Positions 46,885-47,030 of a DNA stretch of 64,000 nt are shown one piece after another (the stretch's first letter is position 1; the number at the start of each line of letters is the position of its first letter). Below the pieces are notes generated by a model. It searched no databases, was not told the origin of the DNA, and was given only the letters and a program-made list of their open reading frames with translations. Both the position numbers and the translations under genes were made by a program. Source of the stretch: an uncultured Chloroflexia bacterium (GTDB taxonomy: Bacteria > Chloroflexota > Dehalococcoidia > GIF9 > UBA5629); the NCBI GenBank assembly GCA_963752975.1, contig CAVWAG010000003.1:206793-270792 (forward strand), written 5' to 3'.

Positions 46885-47030
46885 TATGATGATGGATGCG
46901 GTAGACCGTCCCGTCCCTTGGTCTTATAGGCCGTTACGTAGCATGGGTCGCCGCATCCGATCTCCAAGTAACCCGAACAGTTGTCTGGGATAAGAAACCC
47001 GCATCATGCAAGGAAGGGAGAAAAGGAGAA
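46885..47030 (+). ncRNA. IS110 bridge RNA (target-binding loop plus donor-binding loop); ends approximate
   Basis: Stem GGATGCGG/CCGCATCC encloses CCCGTCCCT (46910-46918, equals left target + core) and ACGTAG (46936-46941, reverse complement of core + right target). A second loop holds ACAGTTG (46977-46983, equals the element right end) and ATGCAAG (47006-47012, pairs with CTTGTAT with one G-T wobble). Confidence 0.85.

Follow-up and report, generated by a model that had tools for sequence, protein, structure and literature searches.

IS621 of E. coli combines a bridge RNA with a recombinase (Durrant et al., 2024, Nature, PMC11208160; Hiraizumi et al., 2024, Nature, PMC11208158), and the 2024 bridge-RNA work includes an analysis of thousands of IS110 orthologues (PMC11208160). 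As these two papers describe it, the IS621 promoter spans the junction of the circle, and IS110 elements favour REP elements, the natural IS621 site being ATCAGGCCTAC (PMC11208160, PMC11208158). The seekRNA of IS1111/IS110 elements, presented as a non-coding RNA of DEDD-transposase insertion sequences that selects the target (Siddiquee et al., 2024, Nat Commun, PMC11187229), is the same idea under another name. By the published description, elements of the IS1111 group carry their RNA in the right end together with subterminal inverted repeats (PMC11208160), whereas the element described here has it in the left end. For ISPpu10, a preprint (bioRxiv 10.64898/2026.03.19.712850) describes a 'sequence-structure dual match' in which a stem-loop beside the target is proposed to add specificity. 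The mechanism behind the guides treated below had thus already been described in 2024, under the names bridge RNA and seekRNA.

The window, by which we mean the whole 64-kb stretch of DNA that was analysed, contains at 46855-48004 what is very probably an IS110-group insertion sequence, whose left end would encode, on the plus strand, a bridge RNA of about 150-180 nt with its target-binding loop (TBL) at 46894-46958. As reported for IS621, the predicted RNA lies in the left end, upstream of a recombinase of the DEDD and serine type and on the same strand. Unlike IS621, the element has a right end of only 9 nt, which lacks a -35 box, and its host is an uncultured member of the Chloroflexota. 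The main parts of the element are as follows.

46855..48004, plus strand: IS110-family insertion sequence, 1150 bp without the core, delimited by copy comparison and the empty site
46855-47035, plus strand: left non-coding end of the element, 181 nt
47036..47995, plus strand: IS110-family (bridge) recombinase, 319 aa, with an ATG start and with Pfam and PDB matches
47996-48004, plus strand: right non-coding end of the element, only 9 nt, the stop codon lying at 47993-95
46853..46854, plus strand: core dinucleotide CT, left copy (single in the empty site, at both junctions when occupied)
48005..48006, plus strand: core dinucleotide CT, right copy (from the junction reading, copy comparison and empty site)

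The boundaries are fixed by comparison between copies and with an unoccupied site. The termini read TGTATTG...ACAGTTG with CT on each side, and the genome (G000) contains three copies of the element, on contigs C9 and C13 and on C3, from which the window comes; two of the copies are 100% identical over 1146 bp. All three lie at unrelated loci, and each has CCCGTCCCT on its left and CTAC(G/A)T on its right. A genome of the same genus (G011, locus L123) retains the empty orthologous site, ...AAACCCGTCC-CT-ACGTTACTCGTGC, with one CT; it lies in the spacer between an electron-transfer-flavoprotein gene and an EF-G-like gene (...GGACGGGTTTTTAAACCCGTCC-CT-ACGTTACTCGTGC), and its core reads CCCGTCC-CT-ACGTT. 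Among well-matched homologous families, CT precedes the left end in 28 of 29. Among sequencing runs, no RNA run was found to contain the stretch, and four DNA contig sets contain 8-14% of the sampled words. The DNA contigs that match the element are 150-213 nt long and lie inside the recombinase gene, with two further pieces in the flanks, and none of them spans a junction.

Membership of the IS1111 group, whose elements have a long right end that houses the RNA and inverted repeats of 7-17 bp in subterminal positions, was considered and rejected, the right end here being 9 nt long and the RNA lying in the 181-nt left end; among the 18 inverted-repeat pairs found, none links both subterminal regions. 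In the third copy in the genome (C13:55494-56640; L003, L006, L007), the insertion of one base breaks up the recombinase frame near codons 211-218, and one TGA lies inside the first recombinase piece; the bridge-RNA region of this copy is unchanged. Outside the element, directly 3' of an electron-transfer-flavoprotein alpha-subunit-like gene (45720-46718), the window also contains a strong hairpin resembling an intrinsic terminator (46744-46777, 15 pairs followed by a T run). It accounts for the weak Rfam leader matches in its vicinity. A scan of 46700-48100 against Rfam 15 at E up to 10 returned 19 matches, all below the gathering scores and none related, a result that is silent on membership because Rfam has no bridge-RNA family.

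The recombinase matches the DEDD_Tnp_IS110 family (PF01548, 2.2e-25) and the Transposase_20 family (PF02371, 7.5e-18), that is, an N-terminal RuvC-like DEDD domain followed by a C-terminal Tnp domain with the catalytic serine. A Shine-Dalgarno sequence, GGAG, stands at 47024-47027 ahead of its ATG. Its only matches among solved structures are ISCro4 (E 5.2e-43) and IS621 (8wt6, E 1.3e-40), each over residues 1-304. Best of these is the ISCro4 transposase (PDB 9t56), a member of the same recombinase family that is likened to our element by protein alone; compared with IS621, the protein is only moderately similar. Residues D11, E55, D97, D100 and S235-G236 align with D11, E60, D102, D105 and S241-G242 of IS621, which are reported to form the composite active site and whose mutation is reported to abolish recombination (Hiraizumi et al., 2024, PMC11208158). 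In a protein search of 60 relatives, matches at E 1e-40 or better were found in 2 of the 60, both partial or broken.

Upstream of the recombinase gene, the left end is marked by two matches to the flanks of the element. CCCGTCCCTTG occurs at 46846-46856 and again at 46910-46920, and these are its only two matches within the 64-kb window, where 0.03 matches are expected; two or more were seen in 0 of 100 shuffles. On the other side, 48003-48010 is matched exactly, in reverse complement, by the 8-mer ACGTAGCA at 46936-46943. Taken alone this second match is within chance (at least two matches in 33 of 100 shuffles), and it carries weight because of its position and the comparative data rather than its rarity. 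Both matches, an exact 11-nt repeat and an exact 8-nt reverse complement, had been claimed in an earlier note on this DNA, and both were confirmed letter for letter. The frame at 47036-47995 is the only long open reading frame between the two repeats. The segments in and around the copied stretches can be assigned as follows.

46871..46893, plus strand: predicted weak A/U-rich 5' stem-loop preceding the TBL, from the minimum-free-energy fold only
46894..46958, plus strand: TBL, 65 nt, from helix 1 covariation and the same length as the IS621 TBL
46894-46901/46951-46958, plus strand: TBL outer stem, enclosing an internal loop with a second stem
46904-46907/46946-46949, plus strand: TBL second stem, enclosing the internal loop
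46910..46918, plus strand: left target guide (LTG) CCCGTCCCT (RNA CCCGUCCCU), equal to the left target plus the CT core, 7+2 nt
46919, plus strand: linker U, one base, following the LTG
46920..46932, plus strand: inner hairpin of the TBL, GGTCT TAT AGGCC (helix 2)
46936..46941, plus strand: right target guide (RTG) ACGUAG, complement of CT+ACGT at 48005-48010 on the top strand
46942..46943, plus strand: TBL handshake guide CA, complement of the last two bases of the element, TG at 48003-48004 (2/2), in position and pairing as described for IS621
46846..46852, plus strand: left target (LT) CCCGTCC, identical to 46910-46916 and the same 7 nt at all three copies
48007..48011, plus strand: right target (RT) ACGTT, complementary to the guide at 4/5 positions, the fifth being mismatched

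GGATGCGG and CCGCATCC, the two sides of the outer stem, form a perfect inverted repeat of 8 bp (I14), and the single-sequence fold is only marginally better than that of shuffles (z -1.92). Since the empty site sets the boundaries at 46855 and 48004, two nucleotides of each match fall inside the element, and the reading of the matches as copies of the flanks needs trimming accordingly. For the 11-mer as a copy of the junction, nine nucleotides stand and the final TG (46855-56) is element rather than target; for the partner of the 8-mer as right flank, 48005-48010 stands and the first TG (48003-04) is the element's own. The two extra letters on the 5' side, those of the 11-mer, are the linker U and the G that opens the inner stem, and those on the 3' side, in the 8-mer match, are the handshake guide. 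The nine and six nucleotides that the earlier note had bracketed are, given the shared CT junction dinucleotide, the guides proper.

Including the core, the guides match the window flanks at 9/9 (LTG) and 6/6 (RTG) positions. The left match is kept in all three genome copies, and the right-side match stands at 6/6, 5/6 and 5/6; counted over the non-core positions of the real targets, the RTG matches 4/5 in the window copy and 3/5 in the other two, whose right target is ACATT. The LTG would pair with the target's bottom strand, and the RTG is complementary to the top strand. This architecture is shared with IS621 as published, which likewise has a 65-nt TBL (nt 34-98), a 9-nt LTG (7 nt plus the CT core) that a 1-nt U linker separates from an inner stem-loop, and, after that, an RTG with a 2-nt handshake guide on its 3' side. 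The RTG differs in extent, covering the core plus five positions in this subfamily compared with the 4-base RTG given for IS621; Durrant et al. (2024, PMC11208160) had already described orthologues with longer RTGs.

A second structured loop lies further downstream in the left end, between the TBL and the recombinase gene.

46972..47018, plus strand: donor-binding loop (DBL), helices 3 and 4 of the covariation structure
46972-74/47016-18, plus strand: DBL stem CCC/GGG
46977..46983, plus strand: left donor guide (LDG) ACAGUUG, same sequence as the right end at 47998-48004
46986-47001, plus strand: DBL inner hairpin UGGG..CCCG
47006..47012, plus strand: right donor guide (RDG) AUGCAAG, complement of CTTGTAT at 46853-46859 (core plus the first 5 nt of the left end)
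47013..47014, plus strand: DBL handshake guide GA, of which G47013 is complementary to target position 7 (C46852)

The RDG pairing includes one G.T wobble (G47008/T46857), and the LDG does not cover the core cleanly, having UC in place of CU. Both donor-guide motifs and both element ends are conserved across homologues, and in the alignment described below (A1) the LDG is conserved together with conserved right ends. According to the IS621 papers, the RDG of that element pairs with the same donor letters (dC8 dT9 dT10 dG11 dT12 dA13 dT14) with the same G.dT12 wobble at the fifth base; here the RDG can pair contiguously, whereas that of IS621 is described as flipping out two U. The DBL handshake GA pairs with the target CC at one of two positions. 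Pairing between the first DBL handshake base and target position 7 is possible in 27 of 28 families, a number equalled in 0 of 10,000 shuffles; the pairs are 23 G:C, 2 C:G, 1 U:A and 1 G.T, and only five families depart from G:C.

Comparative evidence on these segments comes from homologous elements. A scan of one genome per species yielded 512 stretches encoding a relative, and the best 80 of these, with 50-73% identity and from many phyla, were kept. The usable set, defined by the presence of the donor-loop motif and enough upstream sequence, consists of 76 of these 80 loci plus the window, or 77 loci, which reduce to 57 distinct 150-nt left ends (alignment A1). Four loci (L043, L071, L077, L090) were left out, the regular expression for the donor-loop motif being unmatched, and the sequence upstream of the gene measures only 44 nt in L077 and 15 nt in L090; the anchors of L011, L016 and L083 were set by hand. 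The structure examined on A1, for which an RNAalifold consensus was also computed, contains 22 pairs in four helices, with 96.9% of cells paired and 17 of the 22 pairs changed on both sides among the 57 left ends. Shuffles reached none of five measures (0/500), and sliding the partners by 1-3 columns lowered pairing to 35-48%. In helix 1 (the TBL stems) 98.6% of cells are paired and 9 of 11 pairs have changed on both sides; in helix 2 (the TBL inner hairpin) the figure is 3 of 4 pairs, the third reading GC in 30 and UA in 20; helices 3 and 4 (the DBL) show 100% and 97.4% of cells paired and compensatory change in 5 of 7 pairs. The handshake C of the TBL is invariant (AGC in A1), and the right end always terminates in G.

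Between the conserved stems the loops are variable, with 52 distinct guide pairs among the 77 loci. On the right side, the element ends were located by their conserved terminus, independently of the first loop, and the reverse complement of each RTG was compared with its flank. Agreement at the first five positions beyond the core is seen in 44, 44, 42, 41 and 41 of 45 families, respectively, and at the sixth in 9 of 45. To a family's own flank the mean match is 4.9/6, compared with 1.6/6 to the flanks of other families, and 0 of 10,000 permutations reach the observed total. On the left side, any TGT[AG]T within 250 nt was accepted as a candidate junction, the same best-of-candidates rule being applied to own and foreign pairs, and the 6 nt before the core were compared in three registers; a register-free version based on the longest common substring was also run. 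At least 5/6 matches were obtained in 29 of 44 own pairs compared with 135 of 1892 mismatched pairs (0/10,000 permutations). The left-guide matches are weaker than those of the right guide, being 4/6 or fewer in 15 of the 44 own pairs, in part because left junctions and registers are uncertain. A comparison of 7 nt of the LTG in two registers gave a match at position 1 in only 7 of 29 families and left several of them out of register by one base.

The claim of the earlier note that the two segments are left and right target guides pairing with opposite DNA strands is supported by this covariation between guide and flank, and the comparison of homologous left ends that the note had proposed as a check came out in its favour. 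The note named as contrary the case that homologous elements at different targets keep the same loop, which is not what the loci show; the 52 guide pairs at the 77 loci track their own flanks.

Several loci in the set carry features of their own. Thirteen of the best 80 (L056-L062, L065, L066, L068, L069, L075, L080) belong to one Nitrospinales chromosome and share their guides (LTG TTTACCCCT, RTG complement CTTCGGG) and the type of flank (...TACCCCT | CTTCGGGGCATGAA...), indicating that the element has spread into a repeated target of that genome. In L011, a Chloroflexota MAG locus that is the closest among the best 80 (73% identity), a tandem duplication of about 23 nt at 1395-1440 covers the 5' side of the DBL, so that CTCATAATCCCGAACAGTTGCCT is present twice. 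In L028 (Nitrospira) a second left end with a near-identical TBL (…GCCTTGTATCTTGGAG…) lies about 100 nt downstream of the element (L028:1-3 and right flank), so that tandem or nested copies are present in that contig.

How the predicted RNA would act can be outlined from the homology to IS621. By that analogy we infer that the region is transcribed, that its RNA is bound by the recombinase and that the chemistry is that of IS621. Recombinase dimers would hold the two RNA loops, the first pairing with the target and the second, at 46972-47018, with the joined ends of the excised circle (ACAGTTG-CT-TGTAT). The composite serine/DEDD active site would cut adjacent to the CT cores, and the top strands would be exchanged, aided by the handshake dinucleotides CA (TBL) and GA (DBL) pairing with positions 6-7 of the other duplex. 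Resolution of the resulting Holliday junction would then leave an element with CT on both sides, which is the arrangement observed here.

Sequence comparison cannot separate an RNA from the DNA strand of the same sense, and covariation fits either, which leaves room for a reading in which the guides act as DNA, the left end extruding as a single-stranded hairpin whose loop bases pair with the target. IS200/IS605 elements (IS608 TnpA) offer a precedent, having subterminal DNA hairpins whose loop bases pair with the target. We regard this as very unlikely for the present element, since the recombinase is a clear homologue of those of IS621 and ISCro4 with all catalytic residues aligned, and Pfam detects no HUH/TnpA domain in it. 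IS621 (PMC11208160, PMC11208158) and ISCro4 (PDB 9t56) were solved as RNA-protein-DNA complexes, and their RNA is described as needed. G.U pairs are moreover frequent in the stems, as at pair 23-74, with UG in 31 and CG in 25.

The structure might also serve solely as a 5'-UTR regulator of recombinase translation or stability, the flank matches being by-products of a site preference set by the protein. Such a role would be in keeping with older work that took the non-coding ends of IS110 elements as regulators of expression (cited in Durrant et al., 2024, PMC11208160) and with the ability of UCUCC at 46961-65 to pair with the Shine-Dalgarno sequence GGAGA at 47025-29. It is nonetheless extremely unlikely to be the whole explanation, because, across 45 families, changes in the flanks are accompanied by changes in the loop letters between conserved stems, and it leaves unexplained why one side carries a copy and the other a reverse complement. 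That the repeats arose by chance within a fortuitous hairpin would accord with the statistics of the 8-mer and of the single fold, both given above, yet its probability is negligible in view of the rarity of the 11-mer, the three copies with the same flanks, the empty site and the permutation results (0/10,000), and on the comparative sequence data it is already refuted.

The site chosen by the element is itself structured.

46831..46852, plus strand: target-site hairpin in host DNA, GGACGAG / TTTAAAAA / CCCGTCC, its 3' arm being the left target

The target sequence of the element is CCCGTCCCTACGT, and the empty site in G011 has a perfect 7-bp version of the hairpin, GGACGGG-loop-CCCGTCC. This hairpin is the end of a REP-like double-hairpin repeat of the genome, and the natural target is the 3' arm and tail of the REP-like hairpin. 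The repeat consists of two hairpins bracketed by GTAGGGGCG...CGCCCCTAC and is scattered through the genome, with one copy in the window at 38859-38918. A strict pattern finds 13 unoccupied REP-like copies, 11 of which end in CCCGCCCCTAC (CCCGCCC); the other two have CCCGTCC as last arm, one ending in CCCGTCCCTAC and one in CCCGTCCCTAT. The CCCGTCCCTAC copy, at C6:210871, is followed by GTT and is thus a full cognate site that is unoccupied. The hairpin arms change together (GGGCGGG/CCCGCCC versus GGACGGG/CCCGTCC), and all three insertions lie in the rarer CCCGTCC variant, which is the one matched by the LTG, with none in the at least 11 CCCGCCC copies.

IS621, as described, also has CT as its core, and its target likewise lies at the ...CCTAC tail of a palindrome of the REP type. 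The ISPpu10 target, by the account in the preprint, adjoins a GC-rich stem-loop on its 5' side, a setting resembled here by the left target as 3' arm of the hairpin. Among homologous families, the left target falls in a predicted 3' arm in 13 of 28 (median z -0.6), so that a 3'-arm target is not general to the subfamily, evident though it is in the window and the two relatives nearest to it.

Finally, the left end contains signals that may bear on expression. Of 50 related families, 34 have a counterpart of the junction-spanning IS621 promoter in the form of a TTGAC box at a distance of 19 nt from the right end; it is absent from the 9-nt right end of this element and likewise from its nearest relatives. 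The best promoter candidate across the junction is weak (TTGGTT-15-TATTGT, 7/12), and the best sigma-70-like site (TTAATA-17-TATGAT, 46862-46890, 9/12) lies wholly inside the left end, from where it would start transcription about 3 nt into the TBL outer stem. UCUCC at 46961-65 lies between the two loops, and its partner GGAGA contains the Shine-Dalgarno sequence of the recombinase. In some relatives (L026, L031, L033, L035) pairing of the UCUCC/GGAGA type is extended to 8-bp helices with different letters. Testing for an outer DBL stem of at least 5 bp with the Shine-Dalgarno sequence gave 49 of 57 own pairs and 2437 of 3192 mismatched pairs, which fails to separate the two, since a CUCC-type run pairs with GGAG in most sequences.

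The integrated copy, more than the circle, might be the source of the bridge RNA in this Chloroflexota-type clade, with a transcript that serves as either guide or messenger and with discrimination between REP variants by one letter, a combination that we consider possible but unlikely. Transcription from the integrated copy is suggested by the 9-nt right end without a -35 box together with the promoter-like site inside the left end. Since the Shine-Dalgarno sequence would form part of the DBL's basal stem, any one transcript could be a guide or a messenger but not both.

The features in which this element differs from IS621 (the longer RTG, the contiguous RDG, the 9-nt right end and the possible Shine-Dalgarno pairing) are variations and not a new system, and knowledge of the mechanism is unchanged by it. 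What the element provides is a well-delimited natural example from a little-studied lineage: its ends are exact, an empty site and three insertions are documented, one cognate site is unoccupied, and its relatives add 52 distinct guide pairs; the case also illustrates that the guide segments of a bridge RNA can be recognised correctly by a reader of the raw sequence without tools. Current mining of bridge recombinases aims at programmable tools for DNA insertion, and a compact orthologue (1,150 bp, a 319-aa enzyme, a 7+2+5 target) whose natural target is defined makes a reasonable candidate for screening. Transcription more from the integrated copy, together with the guide-or-messenger choice and the one-letter discrimination between REP variants, would, if true, make the element a variant of the known system with a regulatory logic of its own. 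For the biology of the host, the analysis identifies a family of REP-like repeats as the landing pad of the element.
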